Assembly (NCBI GenBank): GCA_003223395.1
Contig: QHUZ01000036.1
Coordinates: forward strand, 627 to 64,626
Direction: 5' to 3'
Length of the DNA stretch: 64,000 bases
Source of the DNA: Gemmatimonadota bacterium
GTDB taxonomy: Bacteria > Gemmatimonadota > Gemmatimonadetes > Gemmatimonadales > GWC2-71-9
Below are positions 4,666 to 63,768 of the stretch, one piece after another. Made by a program: the position numbers and the translations under genes. The first letter of the stretch is position 1. Each line of letters begins with the position of its first letter. A model generated the notes under the pieces. That model did not search any database. It saw only the letters and a list, made by a program, of their open reading frames with translations, and had not been told where the DNA came from.

Positions 4666-5555
4666 GGCACGATCTGCGAGAGTGTGGAGACGACAACGTC
4701 GGTGCCGCCGGCCGCTTTCACCGCCGGGATCACTTGCGGCAGCAGCTCGCGCGGCACCGCGGCCTTCACTGCGTATCCGGTGTCGCCAAACAGCCGTGAT
4801 ACTGTCGCTTGTCGCATGGACGGCAGGACGGCCACGACCGCGTCGAGACACGCCGCCGAGGCGTTCACCTCCAGCATCACGCGGCGCCGCGCCTCGAGCA
4901 CGGAGTTTATCAGCAACACCAGATCGTCGATGAAGCGTCGCCGCACCGGATCATCGAGGGCCGCACGGTGGGCATACAGTCGCGTGGACGAGCGCATCAA
5001 CACATCGACAATCGCGAGGCCGTTTGCCCCGAGCGTCGCACCGGTTGCGGTGTTGTCGACGATCACGTCGGCGTCCTCGGGCGGAAACACTTCGGTCGCA
5101 CCGTAGGACCGAACGAATTCGGCGCATAAGCCGCTCGCGCTGATCCAGCGCCGCGCCAGTCGATCGTACTCCGACGCAACGATCAGGCGACGCTTGGGCA
5201 GTTGCCCGCCCTCGAGCAGCGCGACCGGCGCGGCGGCGACCAGCTGCACCGGATCGAGCCCCGTGTCGAGCAACTCGACGACGTCCGCGCCGCCCGCGCT
5301 GCCCTCGAGCTCCGCCACCCAGTCCGCCCCGGCGAAGCCCACGTCGCGGCTGCCGAGGGCCAGCATCTCCACGATGTTCTGGGGCTTCAGCATCTTCGCT
5401 TCGGCGCCCGCCAACGACACATCGGGCCGATAGCCGCGGGCGCTTGGGCGCACGCGAATGCCCGCGTCGGCGAGAAGCGTCAGGACGGCCTGCTCCATGC
5501 GGCCTTTGGGAAGGCCGAGCCGGAACGGGACAGCGCGTGGGACAAATGTGGACAT
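4662..5555 (-). CDS. hisG: ATP phosphoribosyltransferase (long form)
   Basis: Start at ATG 5555 (MSTFVPRAVPFRLGLPKGRM) with GGAG 9 nt upstream. About 297 aa, including a C-terminal regulatory-domain-like region. Confidence 0.9.
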   Translation of the reverse strand: MSTFVPRAVPFRLGLPKGRMEQAVLTLLADAGIRVRPSARGYRPDVSLAGAEAKMLKPQNIVEMLALGSRDVGFAGADWVAELEGSAGGADVVELLDTGLDPVQLVAAAPVALLEGGQLPKRRLIVASEYDRLARRWISASGLCAEFVRSYGATEVFPPEDADVIVDNTATGATLGANGLAIVDVLMRSSTRLYAHRAALDDPVRRRFIDDLVLLINSVLEARRRVMLEVNASAACLDAVVAVLPSMRQATVSRLFGDTGYAVKAAVPRELLPQVIPAVKAAGGTDVVVSTLSQIVP

Positions 5556-43301: not shown

Positions 43302-44140
43302 CAGTCTCCCGGACTGCCGCGCTTGGGTGTTGGCTTGTGTTCACCGTCGGGCCGTTGGGCCGGCCGGCCGTCGCGCAGTCCGTCGCCCCCAACCTCGCGA
43401 CCGGCTACCTCTTTCCGACCGACGTCCGTGATGCGCGCGCCATCTGGGTGAATCCCGCCGGCCTCGGCCTGACGCGGGAAGCATCGGTATACGCGGAACT
43501 GGGCGTCGGCGATCCCGGCTCGCGTGGGAGGCTGCGGCAGATCAATGCCGGGTTCAATTCGCGTGGTCTGTCGCTGGGCTATCAGCGTGACTTCCTCGAC
43601 GACGGCGTGCGCGGCACGACACTTCGCCTGGGACTCGCGGGTGGAGCGCGGGGGCTCGCGGCGGGTTTCGCCATCGCGCGGTACGGCGGGAGCGGTGCGC
43701 ACGCGACCGGCTGGGATCTCGGTGTGACCTATGCGGCCCTGCCGCAGCTCACCGTCGGCCTCGTGGCGGCGAACCTGGGCCAGCCGATCGTGCGCGGTCT
43801 GCGGCAGCGCTCCAACTTCATTCCGGGCCTGACCTGGCACCCCGGTCCGGTTCCGGCCATCGCGTTCTCGACCGCCGCCCACATCTCGACCGATTCGGTT
43901 CTGTCGTACGCCTTTGGCCTCAGCTGGCGCACCACGGGCACGTCACGCTGGCCCATCGAGATCCTCGCCAGGATGGACACGGACAAGGGGCTGCGCCGCA
44001 GCGCGTTCGCGCTCGGCGTGTCGATCGGAGGAGAGAATCGCTTCGGCGCCGTCATTGCGTCGCCGGGCGATGTGTCGCGCATCGACGCCGCGAGCGTGTA
44101 CGGGCTCGTGACGCGGGAGCCCACCACCCGGCGCCGCTAG
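43298..44140 (+). CDS. putative outer-membrane beta-barrel-like protein
   Basis: Signal peptide ...AVAQS, WVNPAGLG motif and alternating beta-strand pattern. GTGA overlap with the upstream lipoprotein gene. Confidence 0.5.
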   Translation: MTVSRTAALGCWLVFTVGPLGRPAVAQSVAPNLATGYLFPTDVRDARAIWVNPAGLGLTREASVYAELGVGDPGSRGRLRQINAGFNSRGLSLGYQRDFLDDGVRGTTLRLGLAGGARGLAAGFAIARYGGSGAHATGWDLGVTYAALPQLTVGLVAANLGQPIVRGLRQRSNFIPGLTWHPGPVPAIAFSTAAHISTDSVLSYAFGLSWRTTGTSRWPIEILARMDTDKGLRRSAFALGVSIGGENRFGAVIASPGDVSRIDAASVYGLVTREPTTRRR

Positions 44141-50040: not shown

Positions 50041-51723
50041 GTGGATAAACGCAATCTGCTGATCGCGTTCGTGCTCATGATGATCGTGGCCGTCGCGCCA
50101 TCGCTCATCTGGCCGCCCAAGAAGCCGGTCGGACGGCCGGACGGCCGGACGGCCGACTCCGCGCAGGTTACGCCCAGGGTCGCGGACTCGAACGTCACCG
50201 CCGCTGCGCCGTCCGGCCGTCCGGCCGTCCGACCGTCCGTCGACACAGGTCGCGTCGTTTGGGTGACATCCCCTCTGTATCGCCTGGGCTTCAGCTCAAA
50301 GGGCGCCCGTCTCGTCTCCGCAGAGCTGGTGCAATACCAATCGTTTGCTCCGGGCGATTCCGGCAAGTCGGCGCAGCTCGTGACTCCGGGCGACGCGTTT
50401 CTGCGCCACCGCCTGGTCCTTCCGAGCGGCGACACCGTCTCGCTCGACGATTGGGATTTCCAGCCTAGCCCTGACGCGCCGGGGATCCTGGTAAATGCCG
50501 GGCAGGGCCCAAAGCCGTTGCGCTTCGAAGCCGAGAAGGCCGGCTCGCATGTGACGCTCGAGTACCGCTTCCTGCCCGAGGAGTATCGCTTCGAGGTGAA
50601 CGGCTCGGTGACGGGACTGGGCAGCGGCGGCGCCATCCTGCTGCTCGACCTGGCCGATGGACTTCGTTCCGCCGAGAAGGATTCGGTGGATGACTATCGC
50701 CACTACTCCGTGGTGACGAAGGCGTCCAAGACCGAGCGCACCGACTTCTCCAGCATCAAGCCGGGTGAGCGTGCCGTGCTCAACGGCCCGTTCGAGTGGG
50801 TCGGGGTGAAATCGAAGTACTTCTTCGTTGCCGCGCTCGCGTTGGAGGAAGGGCAGCCCACGTTTGCGGGCGCGATCGCGATCGGCGGTCCGCGCAGCGG
50901 CAAGCAGGCAACGCGCGCCACCGTGCTGGTCACGATGCCGGTGCAGCCTGCCGGCACGTTCCGGTACCAGGTGTTCACCGGTCCGCTCGATTCGCGTCAC
51001 CTGGCGCGGCTCGGCCACGGTCTCGACGATGCCAATCCGTACGGCGGCATCTTCCGGCCGATCATTCAGCCCGTGTCGCAGATCGTGCTCACGGTGCTGT
51101 TGTGGATGCACGAGCGCCTGAATCTGGCCTACGGCTGGGTGCTGATTCTCTTCGGCATCGTCGTCCGCATCCTGCTCTGGCCGCTCAACCAGAAGGCGAT
51201 GGAGTCGGGCATCCGCATGCAGGCGGTCGCCCCGCTCATCAAGGAGACGCAGGACAAGTACAAGAACGAGCCTGAGCGGCTGCAGCGCGAGATGCTGCGC
51301 ATCTACAAGGAGCACAAGGTCAATCCGCTCGGCGGCTGCCTGCCCATGCTGCTCCCGATGCCCGTGTTGCTCGCGCTGTTCTTCGTGTTCGCGAACACGA
51401 TCGCGTTCCGCGGTGTGCCATTCCTGTGGCTGTCGGATTTGTCGCGCCCCGATCCGTTCAAGATCATTCCCATCCTGATGGGTCTGTCGATGTTCGTGCT
51501 GTCCAAGGTCGGCCAGATCGGTGTGCCGCCGAACCCGCAGACCAAGATGATGGTCTACTTCATGCCGATCGTCATGACGCTCTTGTTCCTGAACTTTGCG
51601 TCGGGCTTGAACCTCTACTACGCGGCACAGAATCTCTTCAGCATTCCGCAGCAATACATGATCGCGAAGCGCCGCCTGCGCGAAGCGCCTGTGTCGACTC
51701 CCAAGCCTCCGCCAAAGACCTAG
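50041..51723 (+). CDS. yidC: membrane protein insertase YidC
   Basis: 560 aa with N-terminal TM helix, periplasmic domain and C-terminal 5-TM 60-kDa IMP core (KVNPLGGCLPMLLPMP). Confidence 0.95.
   Translation: MDKRNLLIAFVLMMIVAVAPSLIWPPKKPVGRPDGRTADSAQVTPRVADSNVTAAAPSGRPAVRPSVDTGRVVWVTSPLYRLGFSSKGARLVSAELVQYQSFAPGDSGKSAQLVTPGDAFLRHRLVLPSGDTVSLDDWDFQPSPDAPGILVNAGQGPKPLRFEAEKAGSHVTLEYRFLPEEYRFEVNGSVTGLGSGGAILLLDLADGLRSAEKDSVDDYRHYSVVTKASKTERTDFSSIKPGERAVLNGPFEWVGVKSKYFFVAALALEEGQPTFAGAIAIGGPRSGKQATRATVLVTMPVQPAGTFRYQVFTGPLDSRHLARLGHGLDDANPYGGIFRPIIQPVSQIVLTVLLWMHERLNLAYGWVLILFGIVVRILLWPLNQKAMESGIRMQAVAPLIKETQDKYKNEPERLQREMLRIYKEHKVNPLGGCLPMLLPMPVLLALFFVFANTIAFRGVPFLWLSDLSRPDPFKIIPILMGLSMFVLSKVGQIGVPPNPQTKMMVYFMPIVMTLLFLNFASGLNLYYAAQNLFSIPQQYMIAKRRLREAPVSTPKPPPKT
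50126..50235. repeat. perfect 28-bp inverted repeat built from 8-mer tandem units, inside yidC
   Basis: 50126-50153 (cggtcggacggccggacggccggacggc) is the exact reverse complement of 50208-50235 (gccgtccggccgtccggccgtccgaccg). The spacer is 54 nt. Confidence 0.9.
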
Positions 51724-51724
51724 A

Positions 51725-53035
51725 CTGCTCTCCGACCCCATCGTCGCGCTGGCGACGCCGCCGGGTCGCGGAGCGCTTGCCCTGATTCGCCTGTCGGGCG
51801 CCGGATCGTTCGCCATTGCCGCCCGCTGCCTCGAACCGTTTCATCCGACACCGCCGCGCACCGTGTTCCGCGCGCGACTGTCACATCCCGACTCCCGCGA
51901 GCCGGTAGACGACTGTCTGGCCGCCTGTTTCCCGGCTCCGCATTCCTACACGGGCGACGACCTCGTCGAGATCTCGACGCACGGCGGCCTGGTGGTACCG
52001 GCCGCGGCACTCGCCGCATTCGCCGCCGCCGGGGCGCGCCCAGCGCAGCCGGGCGAGTTCACCCGTCGCGCCGTGCTCAACGGCAAGATGGACTTGCTCC
52101 AGGCCGAGGCCACCGCGGATCTCATCGATGCGGGATCGCCGGCGCAGCGGCGCCGGGCGCTGCACCAGCTCGAGCGTGGCCTGTCCGACCGCCTTGTCGC
52201 ACTCCGCAGCGAAATCCTCGAGCTCGAGGCGCTGATCGCGTACGACATAGACTTTCCGGAGGAGGATGAGGGCCCCGTGTCACCGCAACGCGTGCGTGGT
52301 GCGTGGGAGGTGGTGCGTGGGCGTGTCGCCGATCTGCTTCGCACCGCCCCCGAAGGCGAGCGGCTGCGCGAAGGCGCGTTGCTGGTAATTGCGGGGCGAC
52401 CGAACGCGGGCAAGTCGTCGCTCTTCAACGCACTGCTCGGCACGGAGCGCGCGATCGTCACCGAAATTCCGGGCACGACGCGCGACGCGATCGAAGCCTA
52501 CACCGTGATCGAGGGCTTCCCGTTTCGGATTGTCGATACAGCAGGCTTGCGCGACTCGGGCGAGCGCATCGAGCAGCTCGGCATCGAGGTCAGCAAGAAG
52601 TACCTCGCCGCGGCCGATCTGGTGCTTTTTTGCGAAGAGCGCGACGACCCGTCGCGGGCCGCGTTCCTTGCGCAGGTTAGCGCTCCCGTCGTGGTCGTTC
52701 GCACGAAAGCCGACGTGACGGGCGACGGCGTGTCCGCGGTTACGGGGCGAGGCTTGCCCGAGCTGCGCCGCCGGCTTGCAGAAGTCGCGTTCGGCAAACT
52801 GCTCGCGCTGGGTGACGTCGAGCCCGTCGTCACGCGCGCGCGGCATCGGAGCGCGTTGGAGCGGGCCCTCGTCGAGCTGGATGCGTTTTGGACGGCGCGC
52901 ACGGGCGGCGTGGATGCAGCCGCGACGGCGACCCATCTCCGCGCGGCGGTGCTGGCGCTCGACGAGCTGATTGGCGCGGTTACGCCAGAGGATGTACTCG
53001 ACCGCGTGTTCGCGGCATTTTGCGTGGGGAAGTGA
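51725..53035 (+). CDS. mnmE: tRNA modification GTPase MnmE (start codon non-canonical or uncertain)
   Basis: The conserved N-terminus LSDPIVALATPPGRGALALIRLSG is encoded in frame upstream of the first ATG/GTG/TTG (51863). G-domain GRPNAGKSSLFNAL and C-terminal FCVGK are present. Confidence 0.85.
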   Translation: MLSDPIVALATPPGRGALALIRLSGAGSFAIAARCLEPFHPTPPRTVFRARLSHPDSREPVDDCLAACFPAPHSYTGDDLVEISTHGGLVVPAAALAAFAAAGARPAQPGEFTRRAVLNGKMDLLQAEATADLIDAGSPAQRRRALHQLERGLSDRLVALRSEILELEALIAYDIDFPEEDEGPVSPQRVRGAWEVVRGRVADLLRTAPEGERLREGALLVIAGRPNAGKSSLFNALLGTERAIVTEIPGTTRDAIEAYTVIEGFPFRIVDTAGLRDSGERIEQLGIEVSKKYLAAADLVLFCEERDDPSRAAFLAQVSAPVVVVRTKADVTGDGVSAVTGRGLPELRRRLAEVAFGKLLALGDVEPVVTRARHRSALERALVELDAFWTARTGGVDAAATATHLRAAVLALDELIGAVTPEDVLDRVFAAFCVGK

Positions 53036-54341
53036 GCGCTTCGATCATCGTGCGCGCCTTCGCGAGCGTTTCCTCGTACTCCGCGGCCGGCTCGGAATCC
53101 CATACGATCCCGGCGCCCGCGTGAAAGGTCGCGCTCCCATCCCGTAGCACGATCGTCCGGATCGGAATATTGAAGTCCATCGCGCCGGTGGCAGAGACGT
53201 AGCCGATCGCCCCGCAGTAGAGGCCACGCGGCGCCCGCTCCAGTTCCGCGATGATCTGCATGGCACGAATCTTCGGCGCACCCGTCACCGATCCGCCGGG
53301 GAACGCCGCGCGCAACAAGTCGAACGCGTCGGCTCCATCCCTCAGCTCACCCGTTACCGTCGAGACCAGATGGTGGACCGTGGGGTGCGCCTCGAGCGCG
53401 AACAGCTTCGGGACGCGCACTGATCCTGGGCGGCAGACTTTTCCGAGATCGTTGCGCAGCAGATCCACGATCATGACGTTCTCGGCGCGGTCCTTTTCGC
53501 TCTCCAGGAGCTCGCGCGCCAACCCGGCGTCCGTGACCGCGGTCGTCCCGCGCGGACGCGTTCCCTTGATGGGCCGCGCTTCCGCCGCGCGCGTCATGGC
53601 GTCGAGTCGCAGGAACCGCTCCGGCGAGATGCTCGCGACCTGGGCGCCACCGTACTCGAGATAGGCGCCGAAGGGGGCGGGGTTGCGGGCGCGCAAGCGG
53701 CGATACAGCGCGAGCGCGGAGCCCACGAACGGCGCGTGAAAGCGCTGCGAGAGGTTGACCTGATAGACGTCGCCCGCGGCGATGTACTCACGAATGCGCG
53801 CGACGCCGGCCTCGAACTCAGCGCGCGACACGTTGGAACGCGGCTGCTCGGGCGTCGGGGCGGGATGATCCGGAATGGCGGGCGGCTGGGCCAGGAGCCG
53901 GTCGCGGACCCAGGCCGTGCGTGCGGCTGACCGCTCCCCGTTGCCGGTCGTGATGAGCCAGGCCTTCGCCTCCAGATGATCCCACGCGATCACCCAGTCG
54001 TAGAGGGCGAGCGCGACGTCCGGCAGGTCTGGCGTCAGCCGGTCCGCGGGTGGCCGGACGACCTGCTCCTGCTCGGCACCCCAGTCGTAGCCGATGTAGC
54101 CGGCAATGCCGCCCTGGAACGGTGGTAGGCCGGCGACTGGCGGATGCCGGTGGGTGCGCAACATGTCGCGCGCCGCTTCCGGTGTGCGCGCGACGGCGAC
54201 CGGGTCGGCGGCGAGGAACGAGTACCGGCTCAGCGCGCCTTGCGCCGAGCTATCGAGAAACAGGAGGTAAGGGAGTCCGCTGAAACGAACGCAGGTGCCG
54301 AAAGGGTCGGGAGCGGGAACGAGTGGTAGAACGTGCGTCAC
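52980..54341 (-). CDS. pabB: aminodeoxychorismate synthase component I (chorismate-utilising enzyme family)
   Basis: GTG 54341 gives a GTGA overlap with the upstream gene. Motifs GSVTGAPKIRAMQII, GLYCGAIGY and GAGIVWDS. Confidence 0.75.
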   Translation of the reverse strand: MTHVLPLVPAPDPFGTCVRFSGLPYLLFLDSSAQGALSRYSFLAADPVAVARTPEAARDMLRTHRHPPVAGLPPFQGGIAGYIGYDWGAEQEQVVRPPADRLTPDLPDVALALYDWVIAWDHLEAKAWLITTGNGERSAARTAWVRDRLLAQPPAIPDHPAPTPEQPRSNVSRAEFEAGVARIREYIAAGDVYQVNLSQRFHAPFVGSALALYRRLRARNPAPFGAYLEYGGAQVASISPERFLRLDAMTRAAEARPIKGTRPRGTTAVTDAGLARELLESEKDRAENVMIVDLLRNDLGKVCRPGSVRVPKLFALEAHPTVHHLVSTVTGELRDGADAFDLLRAAFPGGSVTGAPKIRAMQIIAELERAPRGLYCGAIGYVSATGAMDFNIPIRTIVLRDGSATFHAGAGIVWDSEPAAEYEETLAKARTMIEALTSPRKMPRTRGRVHPLA

Positions 54342-62902: not shown

Positions 62903-63768
62903 GGCTCATCCACCACGAAGGGCTGCCCGCCGACCCTTTGCTTCAGGCGTGTCTGCGCGCGCTGCGCTTCCTCGCGCGTGGCGTAGCGGCCGACGCGGAC
63001 TTTGAAGAAGCCGGTCGAATCCCGCACGACGCGCGCTTCGAACCCCATCACCTTCAGGCGCGTGAGCATGTCATCGACTTGCGCGGCACTCTTCACGGCG
63101 AGCACCTGCACCGCGTAGGCGCGTGACGCCGCCGGAGGCTGAACCTTCGCGCCGGTATCAGTAGGTGGCGCCGTCGTTGTGTTGGTCGTTGTCGCAGTCG
63201 CCGGAGGGCTGCAGCGCGCCGCGTAGAAGCTGACCTGATTCTTGAATTCGACGTCGTCACCCGCGCCGTCCTGCGCTTGCCGGATCAGCTCACACCCGCG
63301 CGCCTCGTTTTTCAGCTCGAAGTACGCGCGGCCACCGTAGAAGCTCGCGCGCGGCCGCAGCGGCGAGTCCGGGTAATCACGATTCAATCGTTCGGCGGCC
63401 TGGACGGTTTGCGCGGGATCGTGTTGGGCGAAGTAGAGCTGCGTGAGCAGCAGGAGCGCGTCATCGGCCCACGGACCGGCGCCGTATTCCACGACGATGC
63501 GATTGAGATTGGAGGCCACCGTCGGCGCATCCGGCGCCATCTTCGCGGCCGCGAGGAGTGCTTGCGGAAACACCGAATCGCCGGGCGAGAGCGTCGCGAG
63601 CAACCGGCGCACGATGGCGCGGCCGGAATCGACCTGGCCCGACTGCGCCAAACGGAGCGCTTCGATGAGGCGAGCGTCTGTCTGGGCGGAAAGAGGGAAT
63701 GTTGGAATGATGGAAAGAAGTACGACAAACACTCCTACATTCCATCGTTCCATCATTCCGAGTTTCAA
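62899..63768 (-). CDS. SPOR domain protein with TPR-like N-terminal region
   Basis: C-terminal SPOR domain (YAVQVLAVKS...FKVRVGRYATREEAQRAQTRL). Confidence 0.8.
   Translation of the reverse strand: MKLGMMERWNVGVFVVLLSIIPTFPLSAQTDARLIEALRLAQSGQVDSGRAIVRRLLATLSPGDSVFPQALLAAAKMAPDAPTVASNLNRIVVEYGAGPWADDALLLLTQLYFAQHDPAQTVQAAERLNRDYPDSPLRPRASFYGGRAYFELKNEARGCELIRQAQDGAGDDVEFKNQVSFYAARCSPPATATTTNTTTAPPTDTGAKVQPPAASRAYAVQVLAVKSAAQVDDMLTRLKVMGFEARVVRDSTGFFKVRVGRYATREEAQRAQTRLKQRVGGQPFVVDEP

Follow-up and report, generated by a model that had tools for sequence, protein, structure and literature searches.

Dispersed repeats made of a few short units are found in several bacterial genomes, the heptamers of the cyanobacterial short tandemly repeated repetitive (STRR) sequences being one example. 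For Xanthomonas and Nostoc, the passages of Rehm et al. 2015 (PMC4692102) that describe such repeats report dispersed GGGAATC and GGGGA(C/T)T units, respectively, that occur preferentially in fours, form G-quadruplexes in vitro and are under-represented in open reading frames (ORFs). The corresponding part of Aklujkar et al. 2009 (PMC2700814) on Geobacter metallireducens lists 49 elements, between and within genes, that consist of four GGACCGG heptamers, as well as GTTGCTYN blocks of four octamers that form 24 pairs on opposite strands, and proposes unknown regulators. Two other kinds of element are relevant: S23p ORFs between 28-bp terminal stems, which are the selfish intervening sequences of 23S rRNA in Coxiella and Leptospira (PMC4990558), and Rickettsia palindromic elements (RPEs), palindromes lying in frame in many unrelated housekeeping genes and encoding a fold-compatible peptide (PMC10969869). 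Here we analyze an inverted repeat inside the insertase gene yidC, located in a 64,000-nt stretch (the window) of contig C78 of an uncultured Gemmatimonadales metagenome-assembled genome (MAG; G000, 3.41 Mb in 123 contigs, 65.9% GC, 97.6% complete). We consider it likely that this inverted repeat, which lies in frame and contains no gene, is a copy of a repeat cassette found throughout the lineage.

An Inverted Repeat in the YidC Linker

The two arms of the repeat (50126-50153 and 50208-50235) are exact reverse complements at 28 of 28 positions, with 54 nt between them, and the left-arm 28-mer reads CGGTCGGACGGCCGGACGGCCGGACGGC. Given 64 kb at 66% GC, about 1e-9 perfect 28-nt inverted repeats with a loop of up to 100 nt are expected by chance. 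Both arms are period-8 tandem arrays according to Tandem Repeats Finder (TRF), with 3.8 copies at 50126-50155 and 4.0 copies at 50208-50239. They occupy codons 29-38 and 56-65, the first one starting 85 nt into the ORF, past the helix of the first transmembrane segment (TM1), and the peptide of the right arm is A-P-S-G-R-P-A-V-R-P-S (codons 56-66). The predicted RNA fold of the region reaches -91 kcal/mol (z = -5.3 against dinucleotide shuffles). A first-pass annotation, made from the letters of the window, had described a perfect 28-bp inverted repeat with a 54-nt gap, built of tandem 8-mers, far beyond chance in 64 kb, lying in frame in yidC codons 29-65 about 85 nt into the ORF and able to form a very stable stem-loop. 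All of this holds up, the position after TM1 in the AlphaFold2 model and the stability by prediction. An artefact of short-read assembly, which the fragmentation of the MAG into 123 contigs might bring to mind, is hardly credible: a single short read would be longer than the 110-nt element, the ORF remains open and in frame, and the architecture recurs at this site in independent MAGs of related species.

An AlphaFold2 model of YidC, based on an alignment of 35 orthologues (mean predicted local distance difference test score, pLDDT, 76.9), has the TM1 helix at residues 3-23 and the start of the periplasmic beta-sandwich at residue 72; the insertase core, by Pfam, is at residues 364-542. Residues 25-66 have a pLDDT below 50 and no secondary structure, and the element, as modeled, fills a disordered linker between TM1 and the first periplasmic domain (P1). 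Protein alignment shows that other Gemmatimonadales genera have a TM1-P1 linker that is as long or longer and free of arrays. Hence, the element occupies a variable linker that was already present, and does not add 37 codons to the protein. The net insertion of ~37 codons that the first-pass annotation had suggested looking for among YidC orthologues is accordingly rejected.

A Family of Four-Unit Arrays

The yidC arms belong to a dispersed family. Allowing at most one mismatch, the 16-mer GGACGGCCGGACGGCC has 67 matches in the genome, compared to 1 for the reversed control. There are ~40 arrays of at least three units, spread over many contigs and occurring singly or as convergent pairs, and they share one four-unit module of ~32 nt with the consensus NGACGGTC GGACGGYC NGACGGCC GGACGGYC, which the left yidC arm fits. 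Position 7 of the module is T at unit 1 in 23 of the 40 arrays and at unit 3 in 1 of 40. Such position-specific preferences indicate that the arrays are not free-running microsatellites. The single octamer GGACGGCC, for its part, is observed 416 times where a maximal-order Markov model predicts 413, so that the array, rather than the octamer, is the unit of repetition. The same count rejects a DNA uptake sequence or uptake signal sequence (DUS/USS) and a Chi-like motif. The unit holds two GG runs, and hence quadruplexes of at most two tetrads are possible.

Polarity is strongly constrained as well. Convergent pairs of the yidC dialect have the G-rich arm first at seven loci and the opposite order at none; a second octamer family, (GGAAYGAT)n, has 14 convergent pairs and no reversed ones; and when all families are taken together, 55 of the 64 inverted pairs with a common unit begin with the G-rich arm. 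The same design recurs in several 7-mer and 10-mer families of the genome. In the AT-rich dialect GGAATGAT/ATCATTCC, most of the 14 convergent pairs found genome-wide begin 0-3 nt past a stop codon.

The scatter of family copies across many contigs removes the significance that the first-pass annotation had attached to the nearness of yidC to oriC. Its suggestion of a REP- or MITE-like element (repetitive extragenic palindromic sequence or miniature inverted-repeat transposable element) tolerated in frame is right insofar as the family is dispersed and in frame, but the formal tests for both classes fail. For a MITE, the spacers of the seven pairs are unrelated and 20-66 nt long, with no shared internal sequence and no visible target-site duplication. 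The annotation had also allowed that the arms could be one copy among many unrelated repeats encoding Gly-Arg-Pro; they are indeed one among many, but these repeats are related at the DNA level.

Arrays Translated in Other Genes

The arrays were assigned to genes with a codon-usage gene caller of our own, in which yidC reaches +0.38 per codon and the long ORF antisense to it -0.10. By this caller, 28 of the 40 in G000 (~70%) fall within coding sequence and the remainder in intergenic DNA. That the in-gene hosts are real is confirmed by Pfam, as there are matched domains on either side of the array, or the array falls within one (Table 1). In-frame translation is possible because the arrays lack stop codons in all six frames, with (GGACGGCC)n and its complement reading as GRPDGRTA or GRPAVRPS in cyclic permutation. 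The presence of arrays in the essential genes yidC, era, radA and dnaX argues against a phase-variable simple sequence repeat of the contingency-locus kind.

Several copies contribute to signal peptides and lipoprotein leaders, where they form the charged N-terminal region or the part that follows the hydrophobic core. In several secreted-protein and lipoprotein genes, the G-rich arm supplies the charged N-terminus (M-T-V-GRSDGRTA), the spacer supplies the hydrophobic core, and the C-rich arm runs to the A-A-Q cleavage site or to just past the lipobox Cys. The start codon itself can belong to a TGACGGYC unit. A stable stem at such gene starts would bury the initiation region.

Fixed Sites and Changing Dialects

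In relatives of the same genus (YidC 61%-89% identical), the yidC linker also holds arrays, and the unit varies by species. It is GGACGGCC in four genomes (G000, G004, G006 and G011), GGGCGGTT or AACCGCCC in three (G010, G012 and G014), GGCGGACR or TCCGCCCG in G007, and GGATCGCC with CCCATCCG in other relatives. Taking the yidC, era and radA sites of the relatives together, the other units include GGGCGGTT, GGATCGGC/CCATCCGC, GGACGGTC and GGAAGGTT, and they encode different peptides. In the radA linker the dialects are clade-specific. At era, the loop between G4 and G5 bears GGCCGTCC units with the peptide RPSGRPAVRPS in G000 (L078) and all the other species with an array; in G017 (L086) the array is reversed at the same site and with the same length, its CGACGGCC units encoding GRTARRPDG; and six species have a site that is 18 nt shorter and array-free. 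The position of the arrays has thus persisted while the dialect turned over.

Genome-wide, the GGACGGCC and GGGCGGTT 16-mers number 67 and 1 in G000, 1 and 52 in G041, and 53 and 38 in G011, where controls number 0-3; the counts of these two dialects differ up to 50-fold between species. The architecture is also present, built from other units, e.g., (AGGGGTT)n...(CCCTAAC)n, in a genome from another family of the order (G020), and in one from a third family (G027) array levels are only background in the 368-kb sample available. The arms of the G020 hairpins on contig C1 (L141-L160, for instance at 53954-54017 and 316672-316765) resemble telomere repeats. The octamer families of G020 are GCACGGGG, CGGACGCA and GTGATGAA, and one of them flanks its S23p gene (C1:128721-129026).

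These comparisons bear on the idea that selection acts on the protein, favoring a YidC linker of repeated Gly, Arg and Pro residues, the symmetry of the DNA being a by-product. We find this very improbable. The linker is flexible, and an Arg-rich stretch after a transmembrane helix fits the positive-inside rule, if only loosely. Against this, the linker peptides are wholly different between species (GRPDGRTA versus VGRLSGSAD; PSGRPAVRPS versus PTAQPPNRPT) while the 8-nt periodicity of the DNA persists, and the same DNA is found in other frames, on the opposite strand and in intergenic regions.

Conservation of the yidC Hairpin

The pairing of the arms is conserved far less well than their position. 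For the yidC linkers of 26 species, RNAalifold returns 0 consensus pairs. When the stem of G000 is imposed on this alignment, 65.5% of cells pair versus 66.3% in shuffles, and its covariation score is matched or beaten by 450 of 500 shuffles. The linker folds better than mononucleotide shuffles (z <= -2.4) in 12 of the 26 species. In the closest relatives, G017 and L029 (YidC 88%-89% identical), the complementarity of the arms is lost, with z = -0.7 and inverted-repeat scores of 8-9; the closest relative scores 9, compared to 28 for G000. In G015 the left arm is absent. Rfam 15 has no family at gathering score for the element, a chance hairpin match to mir-341 scoring 27 bits against a gathering score of 90. 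On this comparative evidence, the hairpin is frequent at the site yet appears dispensable, and the perfect arms in G000 are best read as the result of recent homogenization.

With the hairpin degraded in the closest relatives and no covariation above shuffles, a pausing structure that controls insertase synthesis, as put forward in the first-pass annotation, has no support from the comparison of species. More generally, a functional hairpin in yidC mRNA could tune the insertase by slowing ribosomes after TM1, or by being cut by RNase III when translation is sparse. The perfection and predicted stability of the stem would suit such a role, as would the retention of an inverted array pair at the yidC site in about half of the species and the overlap of sister hairpins with start codons and signal-peptide codons of secreted proteins; the S23p intervening sequences of Coxiella, moreover, have a 28-bp terminal stem that is cut by RNase III (PMC4990558). 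Most in-gene members of the family, however, are single arms unable to form a hairpin, and elements of the same type are found in cytoplasmic proteins, where membrane targeting is irrelevant. Together with the loss of complementarity in the sister species, this makes a regulatory hairpin quite unlikely.

S23p Genes and the Arms

S23p (PF05635) is a pentameric four-helix-bundle protein, with 13 matches in G000. By eye, 11 of the 13 genes are flanked by inverted tandem arrays, each paralogue having its own unit (GGAGTCA, GGTGTCA, GGAATGAT, AGGGCGGCGA, AAGACGCC and others), and one more is cut off by a contig end. The GGAATGAT dialect, for example, flanks the gene at C69:19429-19713, with arrays at C69:19298 and C69:19781. 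By a strict TRF criterion, 5 of the 13 are flanked, compared to 1 of 1,063 other small genes. The S23p genes of G011 and G040 are likewise flanked by inverted arrays. Several of the flanking units are also found in G000 as families of gene-less hairpins.

The dialect of the yidC arms, with its GGACGGYC module, will be called fam1. Intact S23p genes flanked by this module, as (NGACGGYC)4 and its complement, are present in five relatives (G006, G032, G038, G050 and G001; the screening of the G006 and G032 loci covered the fam1 dialect only), and G011 retains a truncated S23p remnant with fam1 arms. Upstream of the G006 gene, TGACGGCC YGACGGCC GGRCGGCC GGACGGTC occurs three times, and downstream of it once in inverted form. 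Orthologues of the fam1-type S23p, at 62%-70% identity, carry other dialects: GGGCGGAT in G012, G042 and G046, GGATGGCC in G036 and GACGGGCA in G016. The orthologue in G002 carries GGGCGGAC, which is the dialect of that genome's own yidC and radA arrays. The number of GGACGGCC 16-mers averages 77.6 in genomes with a fam1-flanked S23p and 29.5 in the other 36 (one-sided Mann-Whitney p = 0.0075, without phylogenetic correction). This is a trend, and a clean presence/absence rule linking the fam1-type S23p to array number is rejected, with G000, G018 and G040 as exceptions. Comparison of S23p copy number with array density across families includes G027, which has two S23p genes and few arrays in its 368-kb sample.

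The closest solved homologue of the fam1-type S23p is XCC0516 of Xanthomonas campestris (PDB 2GSC, five chains; E = 6e-19). Its source genus is the one in which GGGAATC arrays have been described. S23p shares its fold family with Avd, the accessory protein of diversity-generating retroelements (DGRs).

The connection to S23p is the best lead to a mechanism by which the arrays spread and are homogenized. S23p may be the cognate protein of the arrays, with cassettes and gene-less hairpins together forming a vertically inherited replicator comparable to the REP doublets (REPINs) and REP-associated tyrosine transposases (RAYTs), in Gemmatimonadales and possibly also in Xanthomonas, Nostoc, Geobacter and Bacteroidota. 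Such a replicator would act on four-unit arrays at set positions, keeping or rewriting them, and would do so in essential genes such as yidC, radA and era as well. We offer this as a tentative possibility. A different proposal is that a DNA- or RNA-binding factor, most plausibly the pentamer of the cognate S23p, uses the arrays as cis-acting sites, and that they are actively installed or rewritten in fixed locations, the yidC copy being maintained. The co-variation of S23p and arm dialect is in line with this, as are the fixed arm size of four units, the fixed polarity, the change of dialects at fixed orthologous sites and the one era array that is reversed at the same site with unchanged length. 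It sits poorly, however, with the ~40 arrays that G000 keeps despite lacking the cognate gene, with the absence of any enrichment of the single 8-mer outside arrays, and with the six species whose array-free era site has no obvious consequence. Maintained binding sites therefore seem unlikely to us.

The yidC Repeat as a Probable Cassette Copy

Our preferred reading of the yidC repeat is the gene-less cassette copy. Each arm of a cassette is one module of four 8-nt units, and the G-rich arm precedes its complement. In full-length cassettes a small S23p gene lies between such arms, and in short versions only a spacer. The copy in the TM1-P1 linker has been there since before the radiation of the genus. 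Its survival may be owed to the lack of stop codons in six frames, to the flexible Gly/Arg/Pro/Ser/Thr/Ala peptide that the arrays encode, and to the probable lack of a structural role for this segment of YidC. What keeps the arms alike, and lets them drift jointly into new dialects, would be homogenization at the DNA level rather than selection on YidC or its expression. Slippage within an arm could bring this about, as could conversion of one arm by the other, or exchange with further copies or an S23p cassette. The data show that the repeat belongs to the family and lies in frame in a disordered linker, that its position persists as dialects turn over, and that relatives have S23p cassettes with its dialect; neutrality in yidC, the homogenizing mechanism and any role of S23p are what we infer from these patterns; to judge from sequence comparison, the yidC copy is probably a neutral passenger carried in frame, and not a yidC regulator or an origin-specific device.

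Several observations weigh against this reading. G000, at 97.6% completeness, has no close orthologue of the fam1-type S23p, its best match being 52% identical and having GGAATGAT arms. Its yidC arms are perfect despite this lack of a cognate S23p, which would normally suggest recent homogenization or selection. Four other genomes that are rich in the dialect (G018, G040, G008 and G009) have no detectable close orthologue either. The correlation with array counts ignores phylogeny, and it draws on many incomplete MAGs. The array ends show no target-site duplications. Finally, by analogy with the Coxiella intervening sequence, a perfect 28-bp RNA stem is a plausible target of RNase III and could affect expression in this species.

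For yidC itself the outcome is deflationary, in that the hairpin is probably a passenger rather than a structure dedicated to regulating the insertase. Of wider interest is the family. Four-unit repeats like the unexplained ones of Xanthomonas, Nostoc and Geobacter are here translated in housekeeping proteins and signal peptides. Their sites stay fixed as their sequence turns over in concert, and they have arms in common with S23p genes, whose own sequence follows the dialect. Two old puzzles, the role of S23p and the proteins of 23S rRNA intervening sequences and the origin and upkeep of STRR-like repeats, thereby become jointly testable. If the replicator reading of S23p is true, it would give a function to the long-orphan S23p family and to the 23S rRNA intervening sequences. 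In practice, too, the arrays matter for work on high-GC MAGs, where the stop-free ORF extensions and low-complexity inserts that they create mislead both gene callers and alignments.

Other Features of the Window and Host Genes

The yidC gene lies between yidD upstream and mnmE downstream. A heptamer array in mnmE belongs to a dispersed short-unit family of its own (canonical unit ACCACGC, 11-13 copies in the genome). Coordinates of these features, of further array-like stretches in the window and of the host genes elsewhere are collected in Table 1.

Table 1. Positions of the yidC repeat, of other arrays in the window (window numbering) and of arrays in other genes of G000 (residue or contig numbering)
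Feature	Position	Strand	Description
yidC, host gene, 560 aa	50041..51723	+	Pfam YidC_periplas residues 75-345; 60KD_IMP 364-542
Left G-rich arm	50126..50155	+	CGGTC and three GGACGGCC units; peptide P-V-G-R-P-D-G-R-T-A, yidC codons 29-38
Spacer (hairpin loop), 54 nt	50154..50207	+	Encodes DSAQVTPRVADSNVTAAA; unique sequence, partly conserved in some relatives
Right C-rich arm	50208..50239	+	Four GGCCGTCC-type units, reverse complement of left arm
Heptamer array (GTGCGTG), ~5 copies	52292..52325	+	In frame in mnmE, peptide RVRGAWEVVRGRV
Second hairpin in window	63688..63759		(GGAATGAT)n, 22-nt loop, (ATCATTCC)n; between two minus-strand genes
Two units related to yidC dialect	4818-4833		GGACGGCAGGACGGCC
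Degenerate array related to yidC dialect	43344-43373		CCGTCGGG, 3.8 copies
RadA	residues 40-48		Array between Zn ribbon (8-35) and ATPase (from 61)
Era	residues 126-136		Array between GTPase (6-121) and KH (195-271)
DnaX	residues 383-413		Paired arms between domain III (238-365) and C-terminal domain (419-496)
Mrp/ApbC	residues 88-96		Array between FeS_assembly_P (7-75) and ParA (114-353)
Phosphoglucomutase	residues 217-225		Array inside domain III (209-315)
TatD	residues 191-198		Array inside domain (7-256)
Iso_dh enzyme	residues 103-111		Array inside domain (1-326)
Heptosyltransferase	residues 212-223		Array inside domain (70-295)
Signal-peptide/lipoprotein hosts	C79:115612-116745; C70:38442-39950; C109:32126-32157; C4:30754-32370

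Comparison with Known Systems

A search of the literature on Gemmatimonadetes repeats and on STRR sequences turned up nothing specific. REP and REPIN sequences resemble the present family in being short, species-specific repeats that are found as singlets and inverted doublets and persist vertically at fixed sites, and the REPIN-RAYT pairing offers a further likeness, a small cognate gene that is flanked by the repeat and co-varies with it. Unlike a REP, however, a single arm here is not a palindrome but a direct tandem array, and the copies are not mainly extragenic; unlike a RAYT, the flanked gene is S23p, which has no known nuclease or transposase motif. A direct link to RAYT and REP sequences in G000 is rejected, as its Y1_Tnp genes (two clear matches and a weak third) are flanked by other palindromes or repeats. 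Both clear genes are RAYT-like. At C116:13559-14095 the flanks form a conventional REP-like palindrome, GACCCCGGGC...GCCCGGGGTC, and at C91:7922-8479 they are a repeated ~85-nt block; both are unrelated to the octamer arrays.

With the RPEs the family shares in-frame insertion into ORFs. An RPE, however, is ~100-150 bp long and has a conserved internal sequence and peptide, whereas the elements described here have tandem 8-mer arms and unrelated spacers, are often single arms, and encode a peptide that is not conserved across species.

The intervening sequences of 23S rRNA offer another likeness. They have a small PF05635 ORF between terminal inverted repeats with a stem of ~28 bp, and they are regarded as selfish elements tolerated in an essential gene product. 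They differ in lying in helix 45 of the rRNA, from which they are excised by RNase III, and their stems have not been described as tandem-unit arrays. The yidC copy differs from them further in that it has no ORF of its own and is translated. Its arms are identical in type to arms that flank S23p genes, but the cognate S23p is missing from the same genome.

A further comparison is with the four-unit repeats of Xanthomonas, Nostoc and Geobacter. To the extent that the sections of Rehm et al. 2015 and Aklujkar et al. 2009 dealing with these repeats describe them, they have in common with the present family units of 7-8 nt, a strong preference for four units, a species-specific unit and dozens to hundreds of copies that are single or in inverted pairs and often abut stop codons. 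The arrays of G000 have this form, with about four units of 7-8 nt and dispersed copies on both strands that include inverted pairs. On the same sections, the Xanthomonas repeats are mainly intergenic, whereas 28 of 40 arrays here are in coding sequence, essential genes included; the GGACCGG repeats of Geobacter are partly intragenic. Measured against these sections of the two papers, three features of the Gemmatimonadales arrays appear to have no counterpart there: the high fraction that is translated, the replacement of one dialect by another at fixed orthologous sites, and the co-variation of S23p genes with the arms that flank them.

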